A DNA stretch of 64,000 nucleotides, taken from NCBI GenBank assembly GCA_022823945.1, contig JAJEBK010000031.1:857-64856 (forward strand). Reading direction: 5' to 3'. The position numbers were made by a program, and so were the translations under genes. Within the stretch, counting starts at the first letter, position 1. Each line of letters starts with the position of its first letter. The DNA comes from Anaerolineae bacterium. Its GTDB lineage: Bacteria > Chloroflexota > Anaerolineae > Aggregatilineales > Phototrophicaceae. The notes under the pieces are model-generated. The model saw only the letters and a program-made list of their open reading frames with translations. It ran no database searches and had not been told where the DNA came from. Shown here piece by piece: positions 1 through 45,378 of this stretch.

Positions 1-2559
1 TCTTCATACCCGTTCGCCGCGGATTGGGATGCCTATCGAGAGATTGCCGATTCGGTTGGCGCATACCTGCTGGCGGATGTCGCTCATGTGGCCGGGTTGA
101 TTGCCGCGGGTGTCTATCCCAACCCCGTGGGCATCGCCGATGTCGTCAGCTTCACCACGCACAAAACCCTGAATGGACCGCGCGGCGCTGTTCTCATCAC
201 GCATCGCAAAGACCTGGCGCGCAAGCTGGACCGCGCTGTCTTCCCTGGTGAGCAAGGCGGACCGCACATCAACAGCATCGCCGCCCTGGCTGTGGCTCTG
301 CGCCTGGCGACCAGCGACCAGTTCAAACAGCTGCAACGGCAAACCGTGCTAAATGCGGCGCGGCTGGCGGAAAAGCTGCAAATGCGCGGCTGGCGCACTC
401 CCCACGGCGGCACAAACACGCACCTGCTGCTGGTGGATTGTAAGTCGCGCATTGGCGCGGACGGGACTGCCCTCAGCGGCGATATGGCGGCGCGCATCCT
501 CGATCTGGCTGGCATCGTTGTCAACCGCCAGACCATCCCCGGCGATACTTCTGCTTTTCGACCGAGTGGCATCCGCCTCGGCACGCCCTGGATCACCCAG
601 CGCGGCATAGACGAAACGGGCATCGACCAGTTGGGTGACATCATCGCTGATCTGCTGGAAGCATGCGAACCGTATAGCCTGATGGGACGCATCCGTCCGC
701 TGGCGCGCGCCAAGGTCGACTTTGACGCCCTCATCGAAGCCACGCAACGCTGCCGCGAATTATCACAAAGCTTGGGCATTGACACCGATCACGAACTGCC
801 TTCCCTCCATCCTGATGGGGGGACCGAGGGGGGTTGGAACGCTTCCCTCCAGCCTGATGGCGAGACCGAGGTGGGTGGCCAGCCTGAGGGGGGCGTCCTG
901 CAAATTCTTGGGGAACGCGCCGCCGACTTCCTGCATGGCGCATTGACCAGCGATGTCGATGCGCTACAGGATGGCGAGGCACAAGCGACCAGCTTGCTCG
1001 AGCCAGATGGCGCGCTCATGGCGACGGGAACTTTACAGCGCATGTCGCAGGGCGAATTTCGCTTGAAGCTGCGCGGAAATGTCACGCGGGCAAGCGCCTG
1101 GCTGGCAGCGCTCAGCGATGGGTATGTGCGCTTTGATGCCGACGATGTCAGCGCGACCTTGCCCGGTCCTGTGTCGGTATCCCGCCTTGCCTCCGCCTCG
1201 CTTGCGGATGTCAGCGAGACCGTCGCAATGCCACGCATCGCCAGCAAAGTCACTTTCATCGGCAGCAACCGCTTGCCCGCCGAACGATCGGGGTGGTCGC
1301 CAGCGCCTCTGTCAGCCTTTGAGCCCAATCTCGCCAGTGTCGATATGCTCTTGCAGACACCCCTGCTCGGCGCGCACCGCGAACTTGGCGCGAAACTTGC
1401 GCCCTTCGCCGGCTACGAGATGCCCTTGTGGTATCAGTCCGTCAGCGCTGAGCATGCCGCTGTGCGCGAATCGGCCGGCGTCTTTGATGTCGCGCACATG
1501 GGCGTGCTGGAAGTCAGCGGGCGTGGGGCGGCGCGCTTCTTGCATACCCTCACCACCAACGATGTGCTCAGCCTGCGCGTCGGCAGATCGCATTATTCCT
1601 TCTTGCTGGATGTCGATGGCGGCGTGCTGGATGACTTGCTGGTCTATCGATTGGCGGAGGAGCGCTTCCTGGCGGTTGTCAATGCCAGCAACAACGACAA
1701 GATCTGGGCTTGGCTGACCTCGGTGCATGAGTGCGCTGCCATGCTCGACCGCGATCACCCTACCCGCTGCATCGAGGGCTGCGAACGCGTGCAACTGCGC
1801 GACCTGCGCGCTGTCTCGTCTGGAGCCGACCGCCGCGTCGATCTCGCCTTGCAAGGTCCGCGCAGCCGCGAAATTCTGCAAAGCCTGCTGGAACAGACGC
1901 GCCAGGGCACACAATCGACAGTGAAACTGCCCTGGTCGGGCGTGATGACAACACAGCGCGGCTGGATCATTTCTCGCACTGGCTACACCGGCGAACGCGT
2001 GGCGTATGAATTGTTCGTTCCGCCCGACGAATCGGCAGATATCTTCCAGCAACTGGTAGATCTGGGCGCTGCGCCCTGTGGCTTGGCGGCGCGTGACAGC
2101 TTGCGCATCGAAGCCGGCTTGCCGCTATACGGACATGAACTGGCTGGGGAACTGGAGCTCAATCCGGCTGATGCTGGCTTCGGCAGCTTTGTCAAGCTCT
2201 ACAAGCCCTTCTTCGTTGGCAAGCGCGCTTTCATAGAGCGCGAACGCACGCGCAAACACCAGGTCAGCCGCTTCGTGCTGGATGCTCGTGGCGGACGCCC
2301 CGCCCAACCGGGTGACCCGGTCGTGAATGCCCGTGGGCGTGTCGTCGGCACTGTGACAAGCTGCGCTGGCGATGCGCAAGGCAACCAGGTCGGGCTTGCC
2401 TTAATGGACCGCGGCAGCCGCAAGGTCGGCACCCGCCTGGAGGTGTATGCGGGTTCGGCCAGGGCGCGCGGCATTGACGCCAGCAAGACGGCCATCGGCA
2501 CGCGTTTGCCAGTGCCGCAGCCCTTGCGCATCGTTTCGCGTTTCCCCAAGCGTAGCTGA
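1..2559 (+). CDS. glyA-gcvT: Serine hydroxymethyltransferase (5' end outside the window) fused in frame to a complete aminomethyltransferase (glycine cleavage T protein)
   Basis: Frame 1 is open from base 1 and reads SSYPFAADWDAYREIADSVGAYLLADVAHVAGL...TTHKTLNGPRG, which are SHMT PLP-region motifs. The same ORF runs without a stop into GcvT motifs (GAKLAPFAGYEMPLWY, VFDVAHMG, SRTGYTGE, EAGLPLYGHEL). Stop TGA at 2557-2559. Confidence 0.85.
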   Translation, partial: SSYPFAADWDAYREIADSVGAYLLADVAHVAGLIAAGVYPNPVGIADVVSFTTHKTLNGPRGAVLITHRKDLARKLDRAVFPGEQGGPHINSIAALAVALRLATSDQFKQLQRQTVLNAARLAEKLQMRGWRTPHGGTNTHLLLVDCKSRIGADGTALSGDMAARILDLAGIVVNRQTIPGDTSAFRPSGIRLGTPWITQRGIDETGIDQLGDIIADLLEACEPYSLMGRIRPLARAKVDFDALIEATQRCRELSQSLGIDTDHELPSLHPDGGTEGGWNASLQPDGETEVGGQPEGGVLQILGERAADFLHGALTSDVDALQDGEAQATSLLEPDGALMATGTLQRMSQGEFRLKLRGNVTRASAWLAALSDGYVRFDADDVSATLPGPVSVSRLASASLADVSETVAMPRIASKVTFIGSNRLPAERSGWSPAPLSAFEPNLASVDMLLQTPLLGAHRELGAKLAPFAGYEMPLWYQSVSAEHAAVRESAGVFDVAHMGVLEVSGRGAARFLHTLTTNDVLSLRVGRSHYSFLLDVDGGVLDDLLVYRLAEERFLAVVNASNNDKIWAWLTSVHECAAMLDRDHPTRCIEGCERVQLRDLRAVSSGADRRVDLALQGPRSREILQSLLEQTRQGTQSTVKLPWSGVMTTQRGWIISRTGYTGERVAYELFVPPDESADIFQQLVDLGAAPCGLAARDSLRIEAGLPLYGHELAGELELNPADAGFGSFVKLYKPFFVGKRAFIERERTRKHQVSRFVLDARGGRPAQPGDPVVNARGRVVGTVTSCAGDAQGNQVGLALMDRGSRKVGTRLEVYAGSARARGIDASKTAIGTRLPVPQPLRIVSRFPKRS

Positions 2560-2580
2560 CAAAGCAGGCGTTTAACGTTG

Positions 2581-2625
2581 GCCCCCACCCTAAATCCCTC
2601 CCCCATAAAGAGGGAGGGACTTCAA
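2581..2625 (+). repeat. Partial copy (first hairpin) of the ~115-bp family-A hairpin element
   Basis: gcccccaccctaaatccctcccccataaagagggagggacttcaa is nearly identical to 23064-23108 and similar to 19771-19810. It contains the ccctccc/gggaggg stem. Confidence 0.8.
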
Positions 2626-2630
2626 TTCAT

Positions 2631-2858
2631 AGCAGCGCGCATCCAGCAAACTCGCCAGTCTCCGAAATAAGGGAGAGTCTATTTGTGTAGATTCGATATT
2701 CAAGCCCCCAACTCCCGGCCCCTTCCCCCAGAACGAGGGAAGGGGAGCTAAGCAATCCGAGATTGAAGCAAAAGAGCCCCTCCCTCATATTGGGGGAGGG
2801 GTTTGGGGTGGGGGCATTGCAGCGCGCATCCAGCAAACTTGCCAGTCTCCGAAAATAA
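2631..2858. repeat. Pair of ~40-bp direct repeats (2631-2670 and 2818-2858) bracketing an inverted family-A element
   Basis: agcagcgcgcatccagcaaactcgccagtctccgaaataa versus tgcagcgcgcatccagcaaacttgccagtctccgaaaataa, read directly from the sequence. Confidence 0.8.
2701..2815 (-). repeat. Full-length family-A hairpin element, reverse orientation
   Basis: The reverse complement is colinear with 23064-23178 and 19771-19880. Two hairpins are present: ccccttccc..gggaagggg and cccctccc..ggggagggg. Confidence 0.75.
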
Positions 2859-2980
2859 TGCAGCTTTGACAATCGCGCGCGCCGCCTTTACAATTCGCAT
2901 TTGTCGCGGCGCACACGCTGCCGCTTTTTTCGCAGTCTCGATGCACCAGCGCAGGCGCAATTTAGGAGGCCATCTCCAGC

Positions 2981-5044
2981 ATGAAAGAATATCAGTCGGA
3001 CAAAATCAGAAATGTAGCCTTGGTTGGGCATCAGAGCAGTGGCAAGACTTCGCTGGTCGAGGCGCTCTTGTTCAACACCGGTGCCACCACGCGCCAAGGG
3101 CATATCTCGGAACAGAACATGGTCTCGGACTGGGACGATGAAGAACGCGAGCGCGGTCTATCGCTGTCCACCTCGCTGGTGCCCGTTGAATTCGAAGACT
3201 ACAAGATCAACATTCTGGATACGCCCGGTTTCACCGACTTTCAGGGCGAACTCAAAAATGCCATCCTGGTCGCCGACTCGGTCATCGTGGTGGTCGATGC
3301 AGTCGCTGGCGTCGAAGTGGGCACAGAGTTGGCTTGGGAATTTGCGCGGCTGTGCGAGCAGCCCATTATGGTCGTAATCAACAAGATGGACCGCGAAAAT
3401 GCCGACTTTGATGCAGTGCTTGAACAGCTGAGCGGGCAATTTGACGATTACAAATTCATCCCGGTTACTTTGCCCATCGGTCAAAATGCGCCATTTGACG
3501 GGGTCGGCAACGCGCTCACACAAAAAGCCTACTTCGGCGCTGGGGCAGAGCGGGCCGACTTGCCGGCTGAATCCGTGGATGCGCTCGAAGAAGCCAACAT
3601 GGCGCTGATGGAAGCAGCTGCTGAAGCTGATGATGACCTGCTGGAAAAGTACTTTGAAGAAGAAACATTGAGCTTCGACGAAATTCGCGACGGCATGCGC
3701 AAAGCATCCCGCTCAACCGTGCTGAAGACGGTGCCGGTCTTTGCGACATCCGCCACCGAAAATATCGGCACTGTGCCCTTGCTCGAAGCGCTGGTCGCCT
3801 ATACCACCGCGCCTGACGAACGCAGTGTCAATATCGAACGCGATGACGCAGCCGATACGCTGGGCGCTCCGCAGAGCGACAACGACCCCCTGATAGCCTA
3901 TGTCTTCAAGACCTTGAATGACCGCTTCGTGGGCACCCTGAATTACTTCCGCATTTTCTCGGGCACGATTTCCAGCGACGGCCGCAATATCAATGCCCGC
4001 AGTGGCGCAGACGAACGCTTCAATGCCTTGTTCGTCATGCGAGGCAAAGAGCAATTCCCGGTCAAGGCGCTGCATGCCGGCGATATCGGTGTGGTGGCGA
4101 AGCTGACAGATACCAAGACCGGCGATACTTTTGTCGACAAAGACACCAGCTTGCGCGTCGCCCCGCCAGACTTCCCGGCACCGCTGTATATGCTGGCGGT
4201 GAATCCACGCGGACAAGCTGACAGCGCCAAGATGGGTCCCACCCTCAGCAATCTCTGCGATGCCGATCCGACCCTGCGCTGGCGTCAAGATGGCGATACG
4301 CGCCAGACTGTGCTCGAAGGCATGGGGCAGATTCACCTGGAAGTCACCCTCAAACGGGCGGAAGCGCTGGGCGTGAACATCGATACCCAAATGCCCAAAG
4401 TCCCTTATCGCGAGACGATCACCGGCAATGCCGACTCCAGCTATACCCACAAGAAACAAACGGGCGGCGCGGGTCAATATGGGCGCGTCGACTTGAAGGT
4501 CGAGCCTGCCGAAGGCGACTTTGAGTTTGAGTCGAGCGTGTTCGGCGGGGCGATTTCGCAGCAATTTGTGTCATCGACCGAGAAAGGCATCCGCGCGGTG
4601 TTGCCCGATGGGGTCATCGCCGGTTTCCCGGTCGAGCGCGTCAAGGTCATTGTCTATGACGGCAAGGAACACCCGGTCGATTCCAAAGACATCGCCTTCC
4701 AAATCGCGGGCAGAGAGGCGTTTCGCGCTGCATTCCGCAAAGCCAGGCCCGTCTTGCTGGAGCCGATAATGGATGTGCGCATCACTGTGCCCGAGGCGAT
4801 GATGGGCGATATTATGAGCGACTTGAACACACGGCGCGGGCGTGTGCAAGGCATGGATACCGTCGGCTTCAAGAGCGTCGTCACTGCCGAGGTGCCGCTG
4901 GCAGAGATGCTGCGCTATGGCAACGACCTGCGCTCCATGTCGGGTGGCCGCGGCATCTACACGATGGACTTCAATCGCTATGATCGCGTGCCAGCCTATG
5001 TGCAAGATGAGATCATAGCGGCGGCAGAAGCGGACGCGGATTGA
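2981..5044 (+). CDS. Elongation factor G-like translational GTPase (EF-G paralogue)
   Basis: G-domain motifs [12 protein letters not shown] and NKMD; EF-G domain II-V similarity ([14 protein letters not shown]); AGGAGG Shine-Dalgarno sequence upstream of ATG 2981. Confidence 0.9.
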
Positions 5045-28118: not shown

Positions 28119-29156
28119 TCACCCGCCCGCCTCATACGCCAGCACGGGCATGCCCAGCGACACGCGCACCTGATCGCCGCGCCGAATATAACGTTCCACG
28201 CCCGTCCACGCCACCAACTCTGTGCCATCGCCCAGCGCCAAGCCGACGCGCTGATTGTGCCCGAAGAATTCGCGCCATTGCACTTTGGCCGGCACGCCAG
28301 TCTCATCAAGATGGTCGATATGCAGCGCTTCCGGGCGGATCATGAGACTCACTTCGCCGCTTCGTGGATGATACAGCTTGACTTCTCCCAGGCGGCTGCG
28401 GGCTGTCAAACCCTGTGCCCGCGCGGGCAGCACATTCGCCTCGCCGATGAGCTTCGCCACCTGGATGCTGCTGGGTCGGTTGTAGATGATATGCGGGGCG
28501 GCCAGTTGCAGCAGACGGCCCTCATAAATGACGGCAATTTCGTCCGACAAGCTGAGCGCCTCTTCCTGGTCGTGGGTGACAAATATTGCGGTCGTTTCGG
28601 TTTCGCGCAAAATTTCTCGCACATCGTTGCGAATGTGCACGCGCAGATCGCTGTCCAGGTTGGAGAAAGGCTCGTCCAGCAACAAGACATCGGGATTGGG
28701 AGCCAATGCTCTTGCCAGCGCCACCCGCTGCTGTTGCCCGCCAGACAATTCGTGCGGCAACCGTTCGGAGAATTTTGGCAAGCCGACCATGTCCAGCATG
28801 CGCCGCACTTGCTTGTCGCGCTGCGCCGCGCCTGCCCGCAAACCAAAACCGATATTGCCCGCCACATCGACATGTGGGAACAGGGCATAATCCTGGAATA
28901 CCATGCCCACCTTGCGCTGTTCTGGGGGAACAAAGCGCGAGCCATCGGCGACTATTTTCGCGCCGATCCACACGCTGCCGCTGGTCGGTCTTTCAAAGCC
29001 AGCCAGAAGACGCAGCATGGTGGTCTTGCCACTGCCGCTGGGTCCCAACAGCGTCAGGAACTCGCCAGCGCGCGCCCGCAACGAGATCTCGCGCAGCGCT
29101 ATGGAGCCATCGCCAAAGACTTTGCCCAGATTGTCCGTTTCCAGCGCGAATGCCAT
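28119..29156 (-). CDS. ABC transporter ATP-binding protein (Fe3+/polyamine-type importer, FbpC-like)
   Basis: Walker A GPSGSGKT, signature LSGGQQQRVALARAL, Walker B LLLDEPFS, and a C-terminal TOBE-like extension. Confidence 0.9.
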   Translation of the reverse strand: MAFALETDNLGKVFGDGSIALREISLRARAGEFLTLLGPSGSGKTTMLRLLAGFERPTSGSVWIGAKIVADGSRFVPPEQRKVGMVFQDYALFPHVDVAGNIGFGLRAGAAQRDKQVRRMLDMVGLPKFSERLPHELSGGQQQRVALARALAPNPDVLLLDEPFSNLDSDLRVHIRNDVREILRETETTAIFVTHDQEEALSLSDEIAVIYEGRLLQLAAPHIIYNRPSSIQVAKLIGEANVLPARAQGLTARSRLGEVKLYHPRSGEVSLMIRPEALHIDHLDETGVPAKVQWREFFGHNQRVGLALGDGTELVAWTGVERYIRRGDQVRVSLGMPVLAYEAGG

Positions 29157-29230
29157 GTGCTCACTTTTTGCTCTGCCGCATCAACAGCATAGATGATACC
29201 GCGCTTGCAAACACGGGCAGAATGCGCCCT

Positions 29231-30865
29231 TCAGTCCAGAATGTCTTCCTGGCGGAGCACGATCAAGAGCACAAACGCCGATGCCAGGATAAGCGCCAAG
29301 CCCGGCAACGCTATCGTGGACAAAAAAGCTTCGTCATAGGCGCTCCAGATGCGCGTGGCAAAGGTGCGAAAACCGATTGGACGCAAGATCAACGTGGTGG
29401 GCAGCTCTTTCATCACATTGAGGAAGACCAGCGCCATGCCGGCCAAGATGCCGCCCCGCGCCAGGGGCACGGTGATGCGCGCCAGGACGGCCAGCCGCCC
29501 CAAGCCCATGCTGCGCCCGGCTTCTTCAAAGCGCGGATTGATCTGGGCAAAGGCGCTTTCGGTCGCGCCGATGCTCAACGGCAGGTAGCGTACGGCATAG
29601 CCCAGAATCAGCAATGGCAAGGTCTGATACAGCGACAGCAGATTCTGCGATGCAAATGACACCAGCGCCAGAGCGACAACGATGCCGGGCAGCACATTGC
29701 CGGCATAAGCGATATTGACAAGCCAACGATTTGCGCGGTTGGCTCGCCGCATCGCCAGCAGCGCCAGAGGCAGAGCCGCCACCGTCACCACAGTCGCCGC
29801 TACCGCGCTCACGCTGATGGTGTTGCCTGCCAATTGCGAAAGCGGGATGTGCACGGGGTTGGTCATCTGCCGACCAACCAGCCAGCTGAACAGAACAAGT
29901 ATCGGCACGACGACGCCAGCCAGCACCACCGCGCCGCAAAATGCCACCGCCAGATAGCGCCATTTGCCCAGCCGCACCACTTCCAGCCGGCGTGATGCGC
30001 CGCTGCCGATGCGGAAGTGCCGCCCACGCCCCGCCGCGCGCGATTGCATAACCAGCAGCGCCAGCGCCATGACGATCAGCACCAGCGCCAGCAGCGAGGC
30101 TTTGTCCATGCGGAAAGACTCGGTCTGCAAAAAGATGGCGCGCGTGAATGCGTTGTATTGCATCACGGCCACTGCGCCGAAGTCGCTGAGAATGTACAAT
30201 GCAGCCAAAAGCATGCCGGCCGAAAGCGCCGGACGCAACTGGGGCAATGTGATCTGGCGGAAGACTCGCCAGCGTCCCAAACCCAGGCTGTAGCCCGCTT
30301 CTTCCAGGCTGCGGTCGCATTGCAAGATAGCTGAACGCAGCGGCAGCGCGATGTAGGGAAACGACACCACGCCCAGCGTCAATGTCGCGCCCACGAAGCC
30401 CTTGATGCCCGGCAGACGTTGCACGCCAAATGGCTCGAGCAAGCCTTGTACGATTCCGCGCGGACCAAAGGCTTCGCTGTAGGTGACGGCAACCAGGTAG
30501 GAGGGAATCACCATGGCCGCCAAGCCCAGCGCCAGCCAAATGCGCCGACCCGGCAAATCGCAGCGCGCTGTCAACCAGGCGAAAGGCACGGCGATCGCCG
30601 TCGCCAAGCCTGTCGCTGCCAGCATCAGACTTAAACTATTGCCGACGATCAGCAGAGTCCGCGGACGCAGCAGGTAGTCGATGCCTTCTTGCCCTGCGCC
30701 CGCGGCTCGCAACACCAGCAAGCTGATGGGAATCATCACCACCGCGACCACCGTCAAGCCAATCAGCTGTGTGGCTTGCGCAGCGCCAAAATGTCGGCGC
30801 GACAACACATGCGGGTAATGCCAGTGCGGTCGCAATCGCGGCGGGATGACTTCCGAAAGCTGCAT
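29231..30865 (-). CDS. ABC transporter permease, duplicated (FbpB-like iron(III) permease)
   Basis: 544 aa with two tandem binding-protein-dependent permease halves, each carrying an EAA-like loop (LEEAGYSLGLGRW and FEEAGRSMGLGRL). Confidence 0.88.
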   Translation of the reverse strand: MQLSEVIPPRLRPHWHYPHVLSRRHFGAAQATQLIGLTVVAVVMIPISLLVLRAAGAGQEGIDYLLRPRTLLIVGNSLSLMLAATGLATAIAVPFAWLTARCDLPGRRIWLALGLAAMVIPSYLVAVTYSEAFGPRGIVQGLLEPFGVQRLPGIKGFVGATLTLGVVSFPYIALPLRSAILQCDRSLEEAGYSLGLGRWRVFRQITLPQLRPALSAGMLLAALYILSDFGAVAVMQYNAFTRAIFLQTESFRMDKASLLALVLIVMALALLVMQSRAAGRGRHFRIGSGASRRLEVVRLGKWRYLAVAFCGAVVLAGVVVPILVLFSWLVGRQMTNPVHIPLSQLAGNTISVSAVAATVVTVAALPLALLAMRRANRANRWLVNIAYAGNVLPGIVVALALVSFASQNLLSLYQTLPLLILGYAVRYLPLSIGATESAFAQINPRFEEAGRSMGLGRLAVLARITVPLARGGILAGMALVFLNVMKELPTTLILRPIGFRTFATRIWSAYDEAFLSTIALPGLALILASAFVLLIVLRQEDILD

Positions 30866-30868
30866 GGC

Positions 30869-31888
30869 TTAGTCCAGCGCTCCGCTGTTTTCGATCATCT
30901 CCAAAGTGCCTTGCAGATCGGTGAGATCGGACAAGTCAATCTCGGGCGTTTCGATATCGGCAAGCGCCGGCAGGCTAACAGACGGCGCGACCGAATCGAC
31001 CAGCGGATATTCATAGGTGCTTTGAGCGAAATATTCCTGCGCAGTATCGCTGAGCAGGTAGTCGACCAGCGCCAGGGCCTCATACGGCTGATCGGTCGTG
31101 TTGAGGATCGCAGCGCCGGCTACGTTGATCAGCGAACCGAGATCTCCGCCGGGGAAGAAGTGCAGCGTCGCCGTGATGTCTGGATCTTCAGCCAGGAAGC
31201 GGAACAGGTAGTAGTGGTTCACCAAGCCGCCAACGACCTCGCCGTCAATGGTCGCTTGCACGATGGGCGTGTTCTTGGGGTAGGCATTCACGCCATTGGC
31301 GATCATGTCCGCCAGCCACTGCGCAGTCTCATCTTCGCCCATCAGCACGCGCATGGCTGTTACATTGGCGACGAAGGACGCGTTGGTCGGCGCCCAGCCT
31401 ACCAAGCCGCTCCATTGCTCGCCGGTGAGATCGAGGATCGAGTCCGGCAGGTCCAGCCCATATTCTTCCAGCGATTCCGGGCTGTAAACGAAGACGCGGG
31501 CGCGTCCACTCAAGCCCACCCAGACACCGTCGGGAGATACAAAGGCTGCGTTGGCAACGCGGCCGATTGTTGCGTCGGGCAGCTTGTGCAGCATATTTGC
31601 GGCAGCCAGCGCGCCCAGAGCGCCGCCGTCCTGCGCGATGAAGACATCGGCGGGGCTGTTTGCGCCTTCGGTGAGGATCTGGTTGGCCACAGCGCTTGTG
31701 CCGCCATACAAGATTTCGACTTCTATGCCAGTATCTTCGGTGAATTGCGCCAGGATCGGACCAAGCAGGCTTTCGTTGCGGCCCGAGTAAATCGTGAGCG
31801 GGTCGTGGCTGTCTGCCAGGATGGGCGCTGCGCCGATGCAGACCAGCGCGACAACGAGGCAGATGATGATATTGCGAACCTTCAACAT
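30869..31888 (-). CDS. ABC transporter substrate-binding protein (Fe(III)-type, FbpA/AfuA-like)
   Basis: N-terminal signal/anchor, LTIYSGRNESLLGPIL, and a periplasmic binding protein fold pattern. First gene of the three-gene importer operon. Confidence 0.8.
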   Translation of the reverse strand: MLKVRNIIICLVVALVCIGAAPILADSHDPLTIYSGRNESLLGPILAQFTEDTGIEVEILYGGTSAVANQILTEGANSPADVFIAQDGGALGALAAANMLHKLPDATIGRVANAAFVSPDGVWVGLSGRARVFVYSPESLEEYGLDLPDSILDLTGEQWSGLVGWAPTNASFVANVTAMRVLMGEDETAQWLADMIANGVNAYPKNTPIVQATIDGEVVGGLVNHYYLFRFLAEDPDITATLHFFPGGDLGSLINVAGAAILNTTDQPYEALALVDYLLSDTAQEYFAQSTYEYPLVDSVAPSVSLPALADIETPEIDLSDLTDLQGTLEMIENSGALD

Positions 31889-31934: not shown

Positions 31935-32197
31935 TTGATAGATGGGAGTCAGTTTGGCTGGAATTCGGATGCGCAACCGTGCCAGCCGAACTGACTTCTG
32001 TGTTTTAGCAGGTGTACAGGCTGCATGTCTACGCAATGGGTTAATGCATTAACTGCCTTTGTCGCCAACTAAAGTTGCAGTCGGTTAATTTCTTCGCCGA
32101 TTGCGAAGCGCCACCGCCTCGACTCTGGACAATCGCGCGTACAGCCAATACAGTTAGCCTGCTACAATACCCGTGCAGGTCGTGGGGAGTGGGGGCA

Positions 32198-32671
32198 ATG
32201 TCGAACTGGTGGGGCTCGCGGAAGAATGTCTCATCGCGGCTGGTGTGGGAAGTCGAGGCGATGAAAGCCGCGTTTGGCTCGACATTCCGGCTGGTTGTGC
32301 CGCCATTTGGCGGGCTGCTCTATTGGCAGGGCTCTGTCGAGATCAACATGAGCATCCTGGACTCGCCTTTTCACAACCTAAAAATTGTCTATCCCAAAGA
32401 ATATCCCAACCGTCCCGCCGAAGCCTATTGCGTCAAACCGCGCATTTACAGCGAAAAACACCAGTATGAAGATGGACAGCTTTGCCTGTTTAATCCCAAA
32501 GATGGCGAGCAGTATGGCTGGAATCCCGGCAAATCGACCGCGGTGACCGTGGGCGGCTGGGCGATACAATGGCTGTATGCCTATTACACTTGGCGCTCCA
32601 CCGGCAAGTGGCCCGGAATTGAAGAGCGCATCAAAGCCAGCACACCCTTGCCGCGCCGCCGGAGGCGCTAG
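32198..32671 (+). CDS. Ubiquitin-conjugating-enzyme (UBC/E2)-like protein with a catalytic-position cysteine
   Basis: RLVWEVEAM helix, YWQG, IVYPKEYPNRPAEAY (compare E2 FP.DYPFKPP), and HQYEDGQLCLFNP with Cys96 at 32483-32485 (compare HPN...G.ICL). A G-rich Shine-Dalgarno sequence precedes ATG 32198. TACAAT lies at 32163-32168. Confidence 0.75.
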   Translation: MSNWWGSRKNVSSRLVWEVEAMKAAFGSTFRLVVPPFGGLLYWQGSVEINMSILDSPFHNLKIVYPKEYPNRPAEAYCVKPRIYSEKHQYEDGQLCLFNPKDGEQYGWNPGKSTAVTVGGWAIQWLYAYYTWRSTGKWPGIEERIKASTPLPRRRRR

Positions 32672-32673
32672 CC

Positions 32674-33888
32674 ATGCGAGCCGCTGATGAGCCCGAATTG
32701 CTCAGCATTCTGCGAGGCGAGTACGACCATATCCGCAAGCGACTGCGAGGCATGGCGATGATCTCGCGCGGCATCGTGCCCAATTTGGTGCTGTCGCGGC
32801 GCGCGGTCGAACGCATGCTGCTGGCTGCCAGTCAATATGTCGCTGACGAAACGGGTGAAGCCATGGTCGGCTTCGTCGTCGACGATGCCACGCCCGAAGG
32901 CAAGCCGACTATCTATGTGCTGGATACCATCTCGCCGGACGAAACAGCTGTGCGCCGCTCGCACACTTTTCAGCAGGGCGACGCGCTGCAAGACGAAGTC
33001 ATCTGGTGGCTGCAAGAGAATTGGCACTACCACCGAAATCAACACCGTGGCACGGCGTTGCTGCCGGCGCGCTTTGATGTGCCGCTGCGCTATCTGGGCG
33101 ACTGGCACAAACAGCCCGGCTCCATGATCCAGCCCAGCCATGGCGATTTGATGACCGCGCTTTCTTGGCTGGACGATGATGAATCGGGCTTGGACTTTTT
33201 GTTGGTGCCCATCGTCACGACCGGACACACCGCGATCGTCGGCGCATCGGATGTCGATGTCAATTATTTTCACCAGCCTATGGCAGACGGCACAGATATG
33301 CGCGTCGACTGGTGGTACATTCACCGCGATGTTCGTGTTTTTCAGCCGGTGCGCCCACAGATCGTCGCGCCCGAAACCTTGCCACAGATGATGAAATACG
33401 GCTGGCATGTGGTGTTGGCGGATCGATTGACCAGCGAGCATTATGCGCTGGAAGACGATGGCTTGCTCCTGCGCACCCTTTTCTATGAGTGCGATGGCGA
33501 GGTGCCGCTGGAGTTCTGCTTCATCGCCATTCGGCAGGGCGCATCGTCTTTTTTGCTGCTGGTTACGCAGCATGATTATCCGCAAAGCCCGCCGCGCGCC
33601 TACCATGCGCCTTTTGTCGCTGGCCTTGACCTCATGGACCCGGTCGCGACCTTTGAGAAACTGTGGGCGGTTGCCGAGCCGATCGCCGAACCGGCAGATT
33701 GGTCTTGGTCTCCAGAGAAATACTTGCTTGACTTTGTCGTCGCCATCGAGATCGAAGCGGGCATTCGCGAGCCAGAGCGCATCAGCATTCCCGTCATTGA
33801 TGAAATAGCCGATGGCACGCACACAGACAACGCATCAGCGGGGTGCGCGCAGCCAGCCAGCCAAGTCGAGGCAAAGCAACATGAGTAA
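32674..33888 (+). CDS. JAB/MPN (JAMM) peptidase fused to a C-terminal Cys-less UBC/UEV/RWD-like domain
   Basis: ETGEAMVGF supplies the conserved Glu. WHKQPGSMIQPSHGD is a JAMM-like H.x..S..D spacing with Gln at the second His position. The C-terminal half has FCFIAI...LLLVTQHDYPQSPP, a UBC-fold signature without a Cys. GGAGG at 32661-32665 lies 8 nt upstream of the ATG. Confidence 0.7.
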   Translation: MRAADEPELLSILRGEYDHIRKRLRGMAMISRGIVPNLVLSRRAVERMLLAASQYVADETGEAMVGFVVDDATPEGKPTIYVLDTISPDETAVRRSHTFQQGDALQDEVIWWLQENWHYHRNQHRGTALLPARFDVPLRYLGDWHKQPGSMIQPSHGDLMTALSWLDDDESGLDFLLVPIVTTGHTAIVGASDVDVNYFHQPMADGTDMRVDWWYIHRDVRVFQPVRPQIVAPETLPQMMKYGWHVVLADRLTSEHYALEDDGLLLRTLFYECDGEVPLEFCFIAIRQGASSFLLLVTQHDYPQSPPRAYHAPFVAGLDLMDPVATFEKLWAVAEPIAEPADWSWSPEKYLLDFVVAIEIEAGIREPERISIPVIDEIADGTHTDNASAGCAQPASQVEAKQHE

Positions 33889-34810
33889 CATGTGGGAGCG
33901 TGTCGGGCGCTTGATCGGCGAGGACAACCTCGATCACCTGGCAGGAAAGCAGGTTGGTGTGGTTGGCTTGGGTTCGGGCGGCGGCTTCGTCGCGCTCAGC
34001 CTGGCGATGTGCGGAGTAGGGCGCTTCGTGCTGGTGGACGACGATGTCCTGGAGCGCGGCAATATCACGCGGCATGTGGCCGACCTGCGCAGCCTGGGGC
34101 AAAACAAAGCGGCGGCTGTGGCAGATTTGATCTGGCAACGCAACCCCGATGCGCGAATCGATGTGCGCGCTGGCGCTATCGAAGACCACTGGGATTGCCT
34201 GGACGCGCTCGACTTGCTGGTCGTGGCGGTCGACAACGAGCAGGTCAAGTACGCGATCAACGAAAAGTGCCTGGAGAAGCGCTTGATCGCCTCTTATGCT
34301 GGCGTATACGAACGCGGCGAAGGCGGCGACCATGTCATCATCAAACCCTATGACGGTCCCTGCTATGCCTGCTGGGCAGCGGCCACGCGCGAAGGCGTCA
34401 AAATCGCCATGAACTCTGTGGGCGATCTGGATTATGGCATGATCGGCGCGGATGGCACTTTGGCATCTGAACCGGGGCTGTGGGTCAATGTCACCAAAGT
34501 GGCCGGCATTCAGACCGATCTCGTTCTGAACGAGTTGCTGCGCGGCACAGCTGCTTATGTCGAAATGCCCGCCAACACGCTGATCGTCAGCAACATCTAC
34601 CTGGATATCATCGAAGGCGCAGAAAGCGACCCGCATACCGGCATCTGGATCGAAATCGAGCGCGACCCGGATTGCCTGGCCTGTGGCGACCGCCTGCAAA
34701 AGGGCGTCAGTCTGCTGGCGCGCGACGAAAATGACAGCATCTCACTGGACGAGCTGGCCGCTTCGCGATTGACCACCGATATCGTTTTCGAAGAAGAAGC
34801 CGAAGATTAG
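33881..34810 (+). CDS. ThiF/MoeB-type E1-like adenylyltransferase
   Basis: Rossmann motif GLGSGGG, VDDD, the NITRH arginine finger region, AVDN, and two zinc Cys pairs (PCYAC and CLAC). ATG 33881 overlaps the JAB stop (ATGAGTAA). Confidence 0.85.
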   Translation: MSNMWERVGRLIGEDNLDHLAGKQVGVVGLGSGGGFVALSLAMCGVGRFVLVDDDVLERGNITRHVADLRSLGQNKAAAVADLIWQRNPDARIDVRAGAIEDHWDCLDALDLLVVAVDNEQVKYAINEKCLEKRLIASYAGVYERGEGGDHVIIKPYDGPCYACWAAATREGVKIAMNSVGDLDYGMIGADGTLASEPGLWVNVTKVAGIQTDLVLNELLRGTAAYVEMPANTLIVSNIYLDIIEGAESDPHTGIWIEIERDPDCLACGDRLQKGVSLLARDENDSISLDELAASRLTTDIVFEEEAED

Positions 34811-35355
34811 CCGCGCGCTTGCTGCTGACGCCACTGGTCGGCGATTGCCCGCAATTTTTCGCGCAGCTTGAGCCGGTCTTTGCCAGTGAAATTCGCCCGG
34901 AAGAGCAGATGATCGGCTGCGCCCGGCGGTTGTCCCTTGTCTTGATAATACAGCTGGAAACCACCGGTGATATTGTGGCGGAAGGCACCCGGATCAAAGA
35001 CCGGCGCGCGGTAGGGCAATTCGCGGATACCGGCGCTCACAACGATGTCATCCGCGACATAGTGCGCCCAGACGCCCAGGATGCGCAACTGCTGATAGCC
35101 GTGATAACCCCTGCTGTGATACCAGATGACGACTCCCGACCAGGCTGCACCACGCACCGTTTTTGGTCCATGGCAGAGGATGCGGGAGTATTCGCGCAGG
35201 ACCAGGTCTGACCAGGTGTCAAAGGCATTGAGCAGATCGAGCGCCTGGTCGTGTGGACGCGCCGGCTTTTTCTGCTGGTGGGCGCGCGCAAAAGGACGCC
35301 GCGTGGCAATCCTCTCCAGGATGTCTTGATAGCGGTCGTCGGGCTGGTCTGGCAA
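34807..35355 (-). CDS. Hypothetical protein (ends ...QQQARG)
   Basis: The ORF is open to 35418. TTG 35355 is preceded by GGAG and lies just past the GNAT stop, which fits coupling to that gene. I recognise no motif. Its stop overlaps the E1 stop (TTAG). Confidence 0.5.
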   Translation of the reverse strand: MPDQPDDRYQDILERIATRRPFARAHQQKKPARPHDQALDLLNAFDTWSDLVLREYSRILCHGPKTVRGAAWSGVVIWYHSRGYHGYQQLRILGVWAHYVADDIVVSAGIRELPYRAPVFDPGAFRHNITGGFQLYYQDKGQPPGAADHLLFRANFTGKDRLKLREKLRAIADQWRQQQARG

Positions 35356-35359
35356 GGTC

Positions 35360-36367
35360 TCACTCCATGGTTGTCTTCGCCAGCTCGATGCCATCTCGCA
35401 GCAGTTTTTCATACACAATATATGTTTGCTGCCGGACCATGCCGACCCGCTCGTACAGGGCTACCGCATTGGTCAGGCTCTGGCCATCGACATCCAGGTT
35501 GACGGTGGGCGTGCCGCGATCCCAGAATTGCCCAAAACTGCGTGTGAGCAGAGCCTGCGCCAGCCCGCGCTGCCGATAGCCGCGCCGAACGCCCACGATG
35601 TCTATGAAGCCAAAATCTGGATGGCGATGATCTTGTGTCAAACCCAGCAGGCAGCCGACCGCCTCGTCTGTGGATTCGTCAAAAGCCAGCAGCGCCAGCT
35701 CCTCGGCGAAGTGTTTGTCGTTGTCCAGCCAATGTCGAAACTCCGCCAGGTCTTTCTCAAAGCTCTGCTCGACATAGCCGTAATGGTCGGAAAAGGCATC
35801 GCGCACGACATCGACCAGCAGCCGCAAATCACTCTCGTGCCGATAGCGCCGCAAGACGATGCCAGCGGGCAGCCGGGCGGGTTGCGGGCGCTCGGTCATG
35901 GTGATGCGCATATCGAAGCTGATCCGCTTGGGCGCATAGCCAGCGCATCGCAAGGCTTCTTCTCGCCAGGCATAACCCTCAAGCGCGCCTGTGACTACGC
36001 TGACTCGGGCCTCGTCCGGGCAGCGCGCAACGACAGCCTGCGCTTGCTTGTCCACCCAGGCAAACAGGTCCGCGTTCAGTTCGCTTGCATACTGGTCAGG
36101 GTGCACGCCCCACTCGAGCCAGGGGTGCACCGGCACTTCGCTGTTCGCCCAGAGTATGGCGTATGCAGCCAGCCTCCCGGCGCAGTCAAATATGCCCAGG
36201 GACAACTGCCCAAGGTCGAAGCCCGGCTCCTGCCAGCTGATGAGGATGGTCTCGGCTTTGTGCTGCTCGTCCAAACCAATCTGCGCGGCAATTGCGCTCT
36301 CAACTTTGGCGACCTGCTCGGCGTCGGACAAGGCAAGTGGACGGCAGGCAAAAACAGATTCGGGCAT
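35360..36367 (-). CDS. Two-domain GNAT acetyltransferase (MshD-like architecture)
   Basis: The C-terminal GNAT has IDIVGVRRGYRQRGLAQALL (acetyl-CoA motif A). The N-terminal half has a second, degenerate GNAT-like pattern. Start is ATG 36367. Confidence 0.75.
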   Translation of the reverse strand: MPESVFACRPLALSDAEQVAKVESAIAAQIGLDEQHKAETILISWQEPGFDLGQLSLGIFDCAGRLAAYAILWANSEVPVHPWLEWGVHPDQYASELNADLFAWVDKQAQAVVARCPDEARVSVVTGALEGYAWREEALRCAGYAPKRISFDMRITMTERPQPARLPAGIVLRRYRHESDLRLLVDVVRDAFSDHYGYVEQSFEKDLAEFRHWLDNDKHFAEELALLAFDESTDEAVGCLLGLTQDHRHPDFGFIDIVGVRRGYRQRGLAQALLTRSFGQFWDRGTPTVNLDVDGQSLTNAVALYERVGMVRQQTYIVYEKLLRDGIELAKTTME

Positions 36368-37690: not shown

Positions 37691-38466
37691 ATGTTGATGA
37701 CGCGGCTGAAAGAATTCTGTCCCAATTTGTGGATTTACGAATTGGAGACGCCGTCCTTTGTGGTGCGCGCCGCTGTGATCAAGGGCGAAAAGTACGCGGC
37801 AGTCTGGGACACCATGTCCCTGCCAGACGAAGCAGCGCCGCTCGCGGACGCCCTGGAGGGCCAACCCTGCTATGTTGTCTATAGCCACGGGGATTACGAT
37901 CACGCCTGGGGTACAGCGGGGCTCGGCGAAGACCATTTGGGCGTGATAGCCCATGCGGAGTGTTTGCGACGCTTTAGAGATGAAGCGCCGCGAACGCTGC
38001 AGTGAATGCAAATGACCGAACCGAGCCAGTGGGACAGCGTGCGCCTGGTTCCCCCAACATCACTTTCACATCTAGCCTGTCGCTTGATTTGGGCGGCCTG
38101 ACCTTGGAGCTGCATCATACGCCGGGGCACACCGCCGATAGCATCGTTGCTTGGATTCCTGAGCGGGGCGTACTGCTGGGCGGGGACGCGATCGAAACGC
38201 CGCTTCCGGTCGTAAACCACGCCCCGCTTCTTCTCGGTTGGTTGGATGCGCTGGCGGTTTGGCAGGCTAATGACAGCCTCAAATATGCGATTCCCTCTCA
38301 CGGCAACGCCTCCGGGCGCGAGAGCCTTGATCAGACGGTCGCCTATCTGCGTGCCCTGGCCGGCGACCGGCAGTTTACACTCCCGGGCAAGCTGGAAGAC
38401 TTCTACCGCGAGACACATCAGAAAAATCTGATCGAGGTTCAAAGCGGGCTCGCGCTGCATGAATGA
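37691..38466 (+). pseudogene. MBL-fold metallo-hydrolase split into two overlapping ORFs (37691-38005 and 38002-38466) by an apparent frameshift
   Basis: ORF 1 carries motif 1/2 (VVYSHGDYDHAWG). ORF 2 carries HHTPGHTADS and GDAIE. The spacing between motifs matches a single domain, and the ORFs overlap at GTGA. Confidence 0.55.
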
Positions 38467-44360: not shown

Positions 44361-44597
44361 ATGAGCGACGAAAACATCAACCGAAATGACGACGATATTG
44401 AAAGTGGTGAGGGCGACCGCCTTGAGCGCCTGGGTGGCGAACCAGCGCCTGCTATAACGCCAGAGGAATTTGAACGGCTGCAAAAGGCGGGCCAAGTCCA
44501 CATCGACTCGCGTGGGCGTGTGCGCACAGCACGGCGCAGCGGGGCAGAAGCCGGCGTGTCGTTGCGCAAACGCCGCGCCTGGTATGGCGAGGCTTAG
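44361..44597 (+). CDS. Small acidic/basic hypothetical protein (78 aa)
   Basis: GAGGGA Shine-Dalgarno-like sequence 5 nt upstream of the ATG. Composition is plausible, but I recognise no motif. Confidence 0.4.
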   Translation: MSDENINRNDDDIESGEGDRLERLGGEPAPAITPEEFERLQKAGQVHIDSRGRVRTARRSGAEAGVSLRKRRAWYGEA

Positions 44598-44658: not shown

Positions 44659-45378
44659 TTGCGCCTGCCCACCGGCATTGTCGAGAGACTTTGCGCCAAT
44701 GCATCGCGCCAACCACAAGTAAATCCTGTGTCTGACAACATAAATTTCCATGACCTGCGCCGGGCGCTCCAGCTGAGCGGTTTTGATGCGTGGGCTGCGC
44801 AGCGGCAGATGGCACCGGTGCCACGCGGCTGGGAAAAGCGCGCTGGACCCCCAAAGCAGGCGGCGGTCATGATTCTCGTCTTTGCAGATGCAAACGATCG
44901 CTTGCATTCGGTGCTGACTCTGCGCAATGCTGATTTGCGCGGCCACAGCGGACAAGTCAGCTTCCCTGGCGGAGGCGCAGAACCTGGCGACGAGGACGCG
45001 CTGGCTACTGCCCGACGCGAAACCGTCGAAGAAATCGGCATCTGCGCGACGCGCGTGCAGCTTCTGGGCTTTCTTTCGAATCTCTACATCCCCGCCTCGC
45101 ATTACAATGTAGCGCCGGTGGTGGCGCGCTATGCTGGAATGCCTGCCTTCTCGCCAAACGCCCTGGAAGTCGCGGAATTGTTCACTTTCGCGTTGGACGA
45201 TCTGCTACGCCCCGAGCTAAAGGTGGAAGAGCGGCGGCTCATTCGTGGCGTAGATGTGCGCGTCCCCTACTACGCCATAAACCGCCACAAAGTCTGGGGC
45301 GCGACAGCCATCATGCTCAGCGAGCTGGAAGGGCGGCTCTTGCGCGCCAGACAAATCGCCAATCGCGAAACGGGCTAG
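44659..45378 (+). CDS. NUDIX hydrolase (CoA pyrophosphatase-like)
   Basis: Nudix box GGGAEPGDEDALATARRETVEEIG, preceded by LRGHSGQVSFPGG, which is typical of the CoA pyrophosphatase subgroup. The start is uncertain. Confidence 0.85.
   Translation: MRLPTGIVERLCANASRQPQVNPVSDNINFHDLRRALQLSGFDAWAAQRQMAPVPRGWEKRAGPPKQAAVMILVFADANDRLHSVLTLRNADLRGHSGQVSFPGGGAEPGDEDALATARRETVEEIGICATRVQLLGFLSNLYIPASHYNVAPVVARYAGMPAFSPNALEVAELFTFALDDLLRPELKVEERRLIRGVDVRVPYYAINRHKVWGATAIMLSELEGRLLRARQIANRETG

Follow-up and report, generated by a model that had tools for sequence, protein, structure and literature searches.

The window analysed here is a stretch of 64,000 nucleotides from an Anaerolineae bacterium (GTDB lineage Bacteria; Chloroflexota; Anaerolineae; Aggregatilineales; Phototrophicaceae), taken from assembly GCA_022823945.1, contig JAJEBK010000031.1, positions 857–64,856 of the forward strand. 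At 32198–34810 it carries three tightly coupled plus-strand open reading frames (ORFs) for a UBC-fold E2, a JAB-domain protein designated JAB-X, and a ThiF-type E1. This trio is most likely a vertically inherited conjugation module of a Chloroflexota lineage, with a small protein encoded further downstream, designated SP, as its cargo. An initial annotation, made from the sequence alone, had described the module as one with no identifiable substrate; this description fails because comparative genomics yields SP as a strong candidate. The reading starts from observed enzyme folds and families, active-site residues, gene order, co-occurrence and conservation of SP. The genes concerned are as follows.

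32198–32671, + strand: E2 (UBC-fold), 157 amino acids (ATG at 32198, TAG at 32669–32671).
32661–32665, + strand: GGAGG ribosome-binding site for the JAB gene, inside the poly-Arg codons of E2 and 8 nt before the ATG at 32674.
32674–33888, + strand: JAB-X, 404 amino acids (stop codon TAA at 33886–33888).
33881–34810, + strand: E1, single-domain ThiF/MoeB-type, 309 amino acids (stop codon at 34808–34810).
44361–44597, + strand: SP, 78 amino acids, candidate modifier or substrate, orthologue of the gene found directly after E1 elsewhere.

The coordinates, the GGAGG site and the overlap of E1 with JAB-X, from which the initial annotation had derived three coupled plus-strand genes, were confirmed on the sequence. 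The overlap lies at 33881–33888, where ATGAGTAA contains both the start codon of E1 and the stop codon of JAB-X. A start of E1 at 33881 is favoured over one at 33812 by the N-termini of the homologues, which are of the MSNMWERV type.

Gene order was compared in 85 related genome and metagenome loci of Chloroflexota and in more distant metagenome loci. The order E2, JAB-X, E1 is kept in 85/85 of the former, so that the three genes do occur together in other genomes as had been supposed, and the same order is found in those distant loci that are not interrupted by a contig end. Outside the window's family, 28 loci include enough sequence downstream of E1 to be informative, and in 26 of them the gene right after E1 is SP; the two without it are L085 and L114, the latter very distant and borne on a mobile element. 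SP lies directly 3′ of E1 in L070–L080, L082–L084, L091, L096–L100, L102, L104, L105 and L108. The gap between E1 and SP ranges from −4 to 37 bp in the nine loci measured and is 2–9 bp in four loci of the more diverged Chloroflexota group L070–L084, where SP is on the strand of E1 and is followed by genes for a PIMT-like methyltransferase, a NUDIX hydrolase and a PfkB kinase. The linkage is kept where JAB-X is only about 22–33% identical to the query used, and the upstream flank of the SP-bearing distant loci consists of one or two genes for membrane proteins, not of the ATP-binding cassette (ABC) importer that adjoins E2 in the window.

In the window SP retains its synteny with the NUDIX gene, which lies 3′ of SP in every lineage, and HhH-GPD and PfkB genes lie a few kb beyond. 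The arrangement is most simply explained if, in the family of the window, E1 and SP became separated by about 9.5 kb of housekeeping genes; in a sister genome the distance is about 17 kb. The position of the orthologue at 44361–44597 fits the fallback offered in the initial annotation, namely that the modifier is encoded elsewhere in the genome. The annotation had also considered that a gene for a ubiquitin-like protein (Ubl) or a cGAS/DncV-like nucleotidyltransferase (CD-NTase) might be consistently adjacent in homologous loci. A consistently adjacent small gene does exist, but its product is not a beta-grasp protein.

SP begins with an acidic, variable segment (residues 1–19; eight acidic and one basic residue), which is followed by a near-invariant block of 56 residues from R20 to Y75 (RLERLGGEPAPAITPEEFERLQKAGQVHIDSRGRVRTARRSGAEAGVSLRKRRAWY), by G76 and by the two-residue extension EA. 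Among 120 protein clusters the identity in the 56-residue block has a median of 100% and a minimum of 89%. The block is 87–95% identical to that of distant Chloroflexota copies, with 27–35 of the 56 codons differing. Comparison with L072 revealed 35 synonymous versus 3 non-synonymous codon changes, which indicates purifying selection, and the synonymous sites of the block are saturated. The block ends in an invariant tail, SLRKRRAWY, after which Gly (63% of clusters) or Ala (14%) is found. Beyond this position there are 0–3 variable residues, usually 0–2, and 20 of the 120 clusters end right there. The precursors have 78–139 amino acids. Of SP, the deepest-branching loci retain only the tail EV[ST]L[RQ]KQRTWG and an acidic helix motif; for example, SP of L088 terminates in EVSLQKQRTWG-TDL. 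In L086 and L121 the SP gene consists of two head-to-tail units, each ending in EVTLRKQRTWG, with RRRSRS thereafter.

The AlphaFold2 model of SP consists of one helix, a hairpin and a terminal helix. No relative of SP was found in Pfam, NCBIfam or the PDB, and Foldseek gave no significant match. Assignment of SP as a beta-grasp protein or to another known fold was rejected on the grounds that the model is a low-confidence helix-hairpin-helix and that neither Foldseek nor the PDB sequence search gave a significant match. A search for ORFs that are Ubl-like or end in Gly-Gly would miss SP because SP is not a beta-grasp protein. An internal LERLGG segment was considered as the cleavage site and discarded, as its Gly-Gly is not conserved and distant loci read RLSGE or RLAGE. 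The basic tail, the dispensable extension, the tandem precursor, a conservation as extreme as that of E2 and the adjacency to E1 are features that, judged from sequence, would be expected of the cargo of an E1/E2/JAB system. SP is therefore put forward as a candidate E1-substrate-type modifier, whose tail would be trimmed, adenylated and conjugated.

The E2 has the landmarks of its fold, including Cys96 in GQLCLFNP, His88, a YPKEYPNRP flap and a poly-Arg C-terminal tail. It is matched by the CBASS-type E2 models of PADLOC (CBASS, cyclic-oligonucleotide-based antiphage signalling system) down to an E value of 1e-14. A phmmer search of PDB sequences retrieved human UBE2L3 at E 1e-5, with GQLCL opposite the catalytic GQVCL, and alignment of the E2 family profile with canonical E2s by hhalign gave a probability of 94% (E 1e-7) with the catalytic Cys aligned. 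Both comparisons align Cys96 and bear out the earlier proposal that the first ORF is a UBC-type E2 with Cys96 as the catalytic residue. Sequence comparison further places the catalytic Cys after the flap and identifies the His of the HPN region, as in UBC-fold E2s; neither Cys96 nor His88 varies within the family. The protein is 89–100% identical across the family loci, and it is still 70–87% identical where JAB-X has fallen to 46–52% and E1 to 56–64%.

JAB-X comprises an N-terminal helix (residues 8–32), a JAB/MPN domain (residues 37–231; nt 32782–33366) and a UBC/UEV-like domain (residues 244–361; nt 33403–33756) that has a DYPQSPP flap and lacks the catalytic Cys. The JAB models of PADLOC match it at about 1e-6. 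The AlphaFold2 model is well defined (predicted local distance difference test score, pLDDT, 88; predicted template modelling score, pTM, 0.82), and Foldseek related it to BRCC36, Rpn11, CSN5 and the Caldiarchaeum Rpn11 homologue at E 1e-8 to 1e-6. The initial annotation had recognised a JAMM-type peptidase core. The fold is supported by the model and the Foldseek matches, but the motif deviates: it reads E59...H145-K-Q147...S155..D158, that is, H-K-Q and not H-x-H. Compared with the JAMM/MPN+ zinc site E...HxHx7Sx2D, JAB-X has the fold and the invariant residues E59, H145, S155 and D158, with Gln147 in place of the second His. Gln replaces this zinc ligand in the window and in all 85 Chloroflexota loci, and HxH is present in most distant members.

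The C-terminal domain of JAB-X shows the alpha-beta4-alpha2 topology of the UBC fold in the model. Among PDB sequences it is closest to an E2 (E 0.067), and comparison with canonical E2 and UEV proteins by hhalign gave a probability of 42% (E 3e-4) over a region from helix 1 to the YPxxPP flap. The UEV domain that had been proposed for this ORF thus stands as regards topology, and its assignment is moderately supported by the sequence matches. A Ubl domain hidden in JAB-X was also considered and rejected, since the model contains the helix, the JAB domain and the UBC-like domain only. In one metagenome lineage (L091, 1247–3472) JAB-X and E1 are fused in a single ORF of 741 amino acids, and SP starts 4 bp after it.

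E1 is matched by ThiF (PF00899) at 1.6e-27. It contains the motifs GLGSGGG and NITRH, conserved L-D-Y-G-M and S-L-D-E-L segments and an acidic C-terminal tail. The adenylation motifs and the zinc site are intact, with the Rossmann-type ATP site (GxGxxG, Arg, Asp) and the CxxC...CxxC pattern of ThiF/MoeB/E1 proteins. At the sequence level E1 also resembles MccB and PaaA. In the alignment of homologues the zinc ligands C161, C164, C265 and C268 are the sole conserved cysteines, and Cys44, Cys106 and Cys130 vary. The earlier view that E1 has no obvious mobile catalytic Cys was thereby upheld.

Two oppositely charged tails were observed in the enzymes: PRRRRR at the end of E2 (32624–32668) versus FEEEAED at the end of E1 (34781–34807). 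Both recur in the Chloroflexota homologues, and in distant homologues of E2 and E1 the tails beyond the conserved core are short or absent. The basic tail of E2, the acidic tail of E1 and the acidic N-terminus and basic tail of SP may take part in electrostatic pairing.

A relative of JAB-X was found in 328 GTDB species representatives (one genome per species), often on Mb-scale chromosomes and at the syntenic site; the best 80 of these 328 are named Phototrophicaceae, Aggregatilineales or Anaerolineae. The homologues fall into 598 clusters, which are all from metagenome-assembled genomes of Chloroflexota where the source is named, and many are on Mb-scale contigs. No relative of JAB-X was found among the IMG/VR viral contigs. 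The trio is surrounded by housekeeping genes (SSB, GatB, UDG and transporters). Identity of ordinary neighbours ranges from 44–57% (a convergent gene for a 203-amino-acid protein) to about 70–90% (a substrate-binding protein), and the slowest-evolving proteins of the set are E2 and SP. Such a distribution is as expected for a core function passed on by inheritance and not for a defence island. A role in phage defence, which the initial annotation had left open beside housekeeping regulation, is disfavoured because of the inheritance pattern and the housekeeping neighbours.

The immediate flanks of the trio contain no beta-grasp or CD-NTase gene. The observation that no Ubl or CD-NTase gene adjoins the operon in this genome, made at the outset, was confirmed for the flanking ORFs. 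Upstream, the divergent ABC importer occupies 28119–31888 (− strand). It had been taken for an iron importer, which could not be substantiated: its best matches in NCBIfam, which are below threshold, are to the putative 2-aminoethylphosphonate PhnS2/U2/T2 family. The importer is head-to-head with E2 in many Chloroflexota loci, diverged ones included. Downstream, a convergent ORF of 203 codons at 34807–35418 (− strand) has a stop codon that overlaps the E1 stop by 4 bp (TTAG), and its product has no match in Pfam, NCBIfam or PADLOC. This gene was considered as a fourth component of the module and rejected, as it evolves fast (44–57% identity) and its C-termini are not conserved. It is absent from four family loci and from all distant loci, and its homologues occur only in loci of the Phototrophicaceae type; hence it was treated as a neighbour. 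Two further features of the region are the following.

44659–45378, + strand: NUDIX hydrolase, CoA-pyrophosphatase-like (NF007980, 7e-26), with an uncertain start (TTG at 44659 or further downstream).
32126–32154, + strand: sigma-70-like promoter match 5′ of E2, weak and by consensus only (9/12 matches).

The region has five sigma-70-like sites where chance alone predicts 1.5, and the promoter match is no evidence of function. A scan of the 64-kb window with Rfam gave no matches.

Several other genes were noted near the trio. A gene for a metallo-beta-lactamase-fold protein is split in the window into overlapping ORFs at 37691–38005 and 38002–38466 (+ strand), and likewise in L125; in the sister genome L124 it is a single gene (256 amino acids). 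The split may reflect a frameshift or a pseudogene. Upstream of E2 in L086, L088, L096, L098–L100, L102 and L108 there are one or two paralogous membrane proteins of 262–354 amino acids (for example, L100 4832–6501) that end in SL(D/E)ELL(A/R)(D/E)Q, and a like motif is present in the C-terminal tail of E1 (SISLDELA in the window). An S-L-D-[DE]-L(-L) motif is thus common to the C-terminal ends of E1 and of the upstream membrane proteins of distant loci. In L070–L084 the PIMT-like methyltransferase between SP and NUDIX (for example, L078 10334–11599) is of the FxLD/graspetide type (TIGR04364, 6e-81), which is associated with ribosomally synthesized and post-translationally modified peptides (RiPPs), and a conserved I-D-S-R-G site of SP could be its target. 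Neither the membrane proteins of the distant loci nor the PIMT-like methyltransferase is present in the 64-kb window. In L121, which belongs to the lineage of L086, an AAA+ ATPase of 733 amino acids related to the second module of ClpB/ClpA is encoded two genes 5′ of E2 (2000–4201), with genes for a DnaJ-domain protein and a radical-SAM protein downstream; this ATPase context occurs in that lineage only.

The module was compared with the known systems that use related enzymes. By sequence, E2, E1 and the JAB domain are closest to proteins of type II CBASS (Cap2/Cap3 and stand-alone E2-CBASS). CBASS has an E1 with a single adenylation domain, a cargo that is not a beta-grasp protein and is activated at a flexible C-terminal tail, and a JAB protein as antagonist or processor (PMC10097602, PMC12948482). 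However, E2 and E1 are separate genes here and are fused in Cap2; JAB-X has an extra UBC-like domain, whereas Cap3 is a stand-alone JAB; and the candidate cargo, of about 80 amino acids, has no enzymatic domain. In four related loci, the neighbours with Pfam annotation within about 8–10 kb include no CD-NTase, and there is none among the flanking ORFs of the window. Furthermore, CBASS is sporadic and located in defence islands or on mobile elements, whereas the trio is vertically inherited and syntenic in 85 loci in a housekeeping context. Bil operons resemble the distant loci studied here in having separate E2, JAB and E1 genes and an adjacent small cargo gene, and in both the C-terminus of the cargo has an extension that would fit processing by JAB (PMC11601596). 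Bil differs in that BilA is a beta-grasp Ubl with a C-terminal Gly and BilD a large E1 of IAD-AAD-CYS architecture, compared with an E1 of 309 amino acids with a single ThiF domain; no beta-grasp Ubl like BilA was found in the flanking ORFs, and the SP model has no beta-grasp match in Foldseek. Bub (6E) systems likewise have an E1 with no catalytic cysteine and include JAB-E1 fusions (compare L091), and their relatives of class 6e contain an inactive E2/RWD-like domain. In contrast to the invariant Cys96 of the present family, the Bub E2 lacks the Cys and forms an oxyester through Ser, and Bub has a DUF6527 serine protease and beta-grasp Ubls; no DUF6527 was found among the annotated neighbours of the trio. 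As the initial annotation had surmised, the module is of a distinct type and fits none of CBASS, Bil and Bub.

That annotation had also assumed a substrate gene in each known E1/E2/JAB set, which is too strong. Class 6a of Iyer et al. 2006, an E2-E1-JAB fusion with a metallo-beta-lactamase, is listed with no Ubl. Class 6a (6A-MBL) is a triple fusion, unlike the separate genes here; the match to NF058523 is weak and partial, and the metallo-beta-lactamase-fold gene is located 3 kb from the trio in the family of the window only and not in distant loci. The sulfur-carrier systems (ThiS/MoaD/CysO with E1 and JAB) have a beta-grasp carrier ending in Gly-Gly, sulfur-metabolism genes as neighbours and no E2, in contrast to the present module with its catalytic Cys, and no beta-grasp, rhodanese or sulfur genes were found in the vicinity of the trio. 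SP shares with Pup a small size, a largely disordered non-beta-grasp nature, an acidic part, a conserved C-terminal end and a lineage-wide housekeeping occurrence. However, PafA, a ligase of the glutamine-synthetase type, works on a Glu side chain, and E1/E2/JAB would act here on a C-terminal carboxylate. The polyubiquitin and Ubl precursors of eukaryotes and the Caldiarchaeum-type operons show the same extreme conservation of modifier and E2, a basic tail of the Leu-Arg-x-Arg type, variable C-terminal extensions, a tandem-unit precursor and an Rpn11-like JAB, but the module studied here has no beta-grasp fold, no RING E3 and a single-domain E1. In functional terms the nearest analogues are CBASS, in which the tail of a protein other than a Ubl is activated, Pup, a disordered modifier joined by a different chemistry, and the polyubiquitin precursors. 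The architecture was not found described in the literature consulted (classes 6a–6e of Iyer et al. 2006, the Bub and Bil papers, and work on Chloroflexi together with E1/E2/JAB).

A pathway can be proposed in which each chemical step, the cleavage site and the choice of SP over another protein as the cargo are predicted from sequence. The precursor form of SP would bear a short variable extension at the C-terminus and, in one lineage, would be a head-to-tail dimer. The JAB domain of JAB-X would trim this precursor and expose the tail end SLRKRRAWY(G/A). E1 would then bind the tail and adenylate its C-terminal carboxylate. Since E1 has no conserved Cys outside the zinc site, the activated SP would pass to Cys96 of E2 either directly or via the conserved Tyr of the L-D-Y-G-M segment; the tyrosine oxyester of the Bub E1 is a precedent for Tyr-mediated transfer (PMC11601596). 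The charged E2~SP intermediate would hand SP on to amino groups of target proteins. The inactive UBC-like domain of JAB-X could serve as a cofactor that holds E2 or SP, and JAB-X might also reverse the linkage.

On balance, that the trio is an inherited E1-E2-JAB conjugation system with SP as a non-beta-grasp modifier or substrate is considered slightly more probable than its negation. Several observations weigh against it. SP is outside the operon in this genome, about 9.5 kb from the trio, and L085 carries the trio with no SP nearby. Conserved adjacency among related genomes can be plain synteny, and the ABC importer is likewise a persistent neighbour in the Chloroflexota loci. The residue after Tyr75 is not Gly, Ala or Ser in about 20% of the SP clusters (D, E, R, N and others), and for this reason the mature end may be Tyr75 itself, an unusual terminus for a protein activated by an E1. 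Only one protein cluster shows the tandem-unit precursor, a database search for others having returned the cluster of the query alone. The confidence of the SP model is low (pLDDT 68). Finally, the clade-wide Gln147 in the zinc site makes the predicted processing or deconjugation activity of JAB-X uncertain.

Some of these observations would also be accounted for if the trio worked on a different cargo encoded elsewhere, such as a beta-grasp protein of the ThiS/MoaD type or the C-terminus of an enzyme as in CBASS, with SP a mere syntenic neighbour. The distance of 9.5–17 kb in the family of the window, the lack of SP beside the trio in L085, the persistent synteny of other neighbours such as the ABC importer and the lack of a beta-grasp fold all agree with this explanation. 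It is nevertheless judged unlikely, as E1 and SP remain adjacent, at distances typical of translational coupling, even in the most diverged loci sampled, in which every other flank is different, and the conserved tail, the variable extension and the tandem precursor of SP are those expected of an E1 substrate. A further explanation is that the module matures SP itself: like MccB and PaaA, E1 would activate the C-terminus of SP so that it could be modified intramolecularly or by a small molecule, and JAB, the PIMT-like methyltransferase and NUDIX would tailor the product. The resemblance of E1 to MccB and PaaA, the FxLD/graspetide-type methyltransferase between SP and NUDIX in L070–L084 and the constant linkage of NUDIX to SP point this way. 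However, a stand-alone, extremely conserved E2 with an invariant Cys has no role in known RiPP pathways, a near-invariant "core" after a variable N-terminus is the reverse of the usual leader/core pattern, and the methyltransferase is absent from the window and from the most distant loci; maturation of SP is thus regarded as quite improbable. The trio could also be what is left, orphaned or degenerate, of a CBASS-type (Cap2/Cap3-like) defence module after loss of the CD-NTase and effector, given that the best profile matches of all three proteins are CBASS E2, E1-E2 and JAB models, that homologues carry the precomputed Pfam label E2-CBASS and that the JAB zinc site is altered. Against degeneration stand invariant catalytic residues, a gene order kept in 85/85 loci, 89–100% identity of E2, a relative in 328 species representatives, absence from viral contigs and a housekeeping context with no CD-NTase or effector within 10 kb, and this origin is considered highly improbable.

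Conjugation of SP by the inherited trio remains the preferred reading. A more specific version of it, in which some Chloroflexota and related uncultured lineages perform housekeeping tagging by canonical E1-to-E2 (Cys) chemistry with a largely disordered non-beta-grasp modifier, made from tandem or C-terminally extended precursors and processed by a JAB-UEV fusion, and in which SP represents a new modifier class, is advanced tentatively and is thought to have somewhat less than an even chance of being correct.

To our knowledge, every bacterial E1/E2 system characterised so far (type II CBASS, Bil and Bub) is an antiphage module of sporadic occurrence. A syntenic E1/E2/JAB system present throughout a lineage would be unlike any of them and, if the reading is true, would be the first bacterial E1/E2 system outside defence. 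Beside Pup and the beta-grasp Ubls, SP would then form a third class of protein modifier in prokaryotes. Should SP prove to be the cargo, E1/E2 machinery would be able to act on a non-beta-grasp modifier, which would bear on the evolution of ubiquitin-like conjugation and on whether the enzymes or the fold came first. The conservation of E2 and of the candidate cargo, about like that of ubiquitin-pathway components, would suggest that E1/E2-type conjugation is part of core cell biology in a bacterial phylum.

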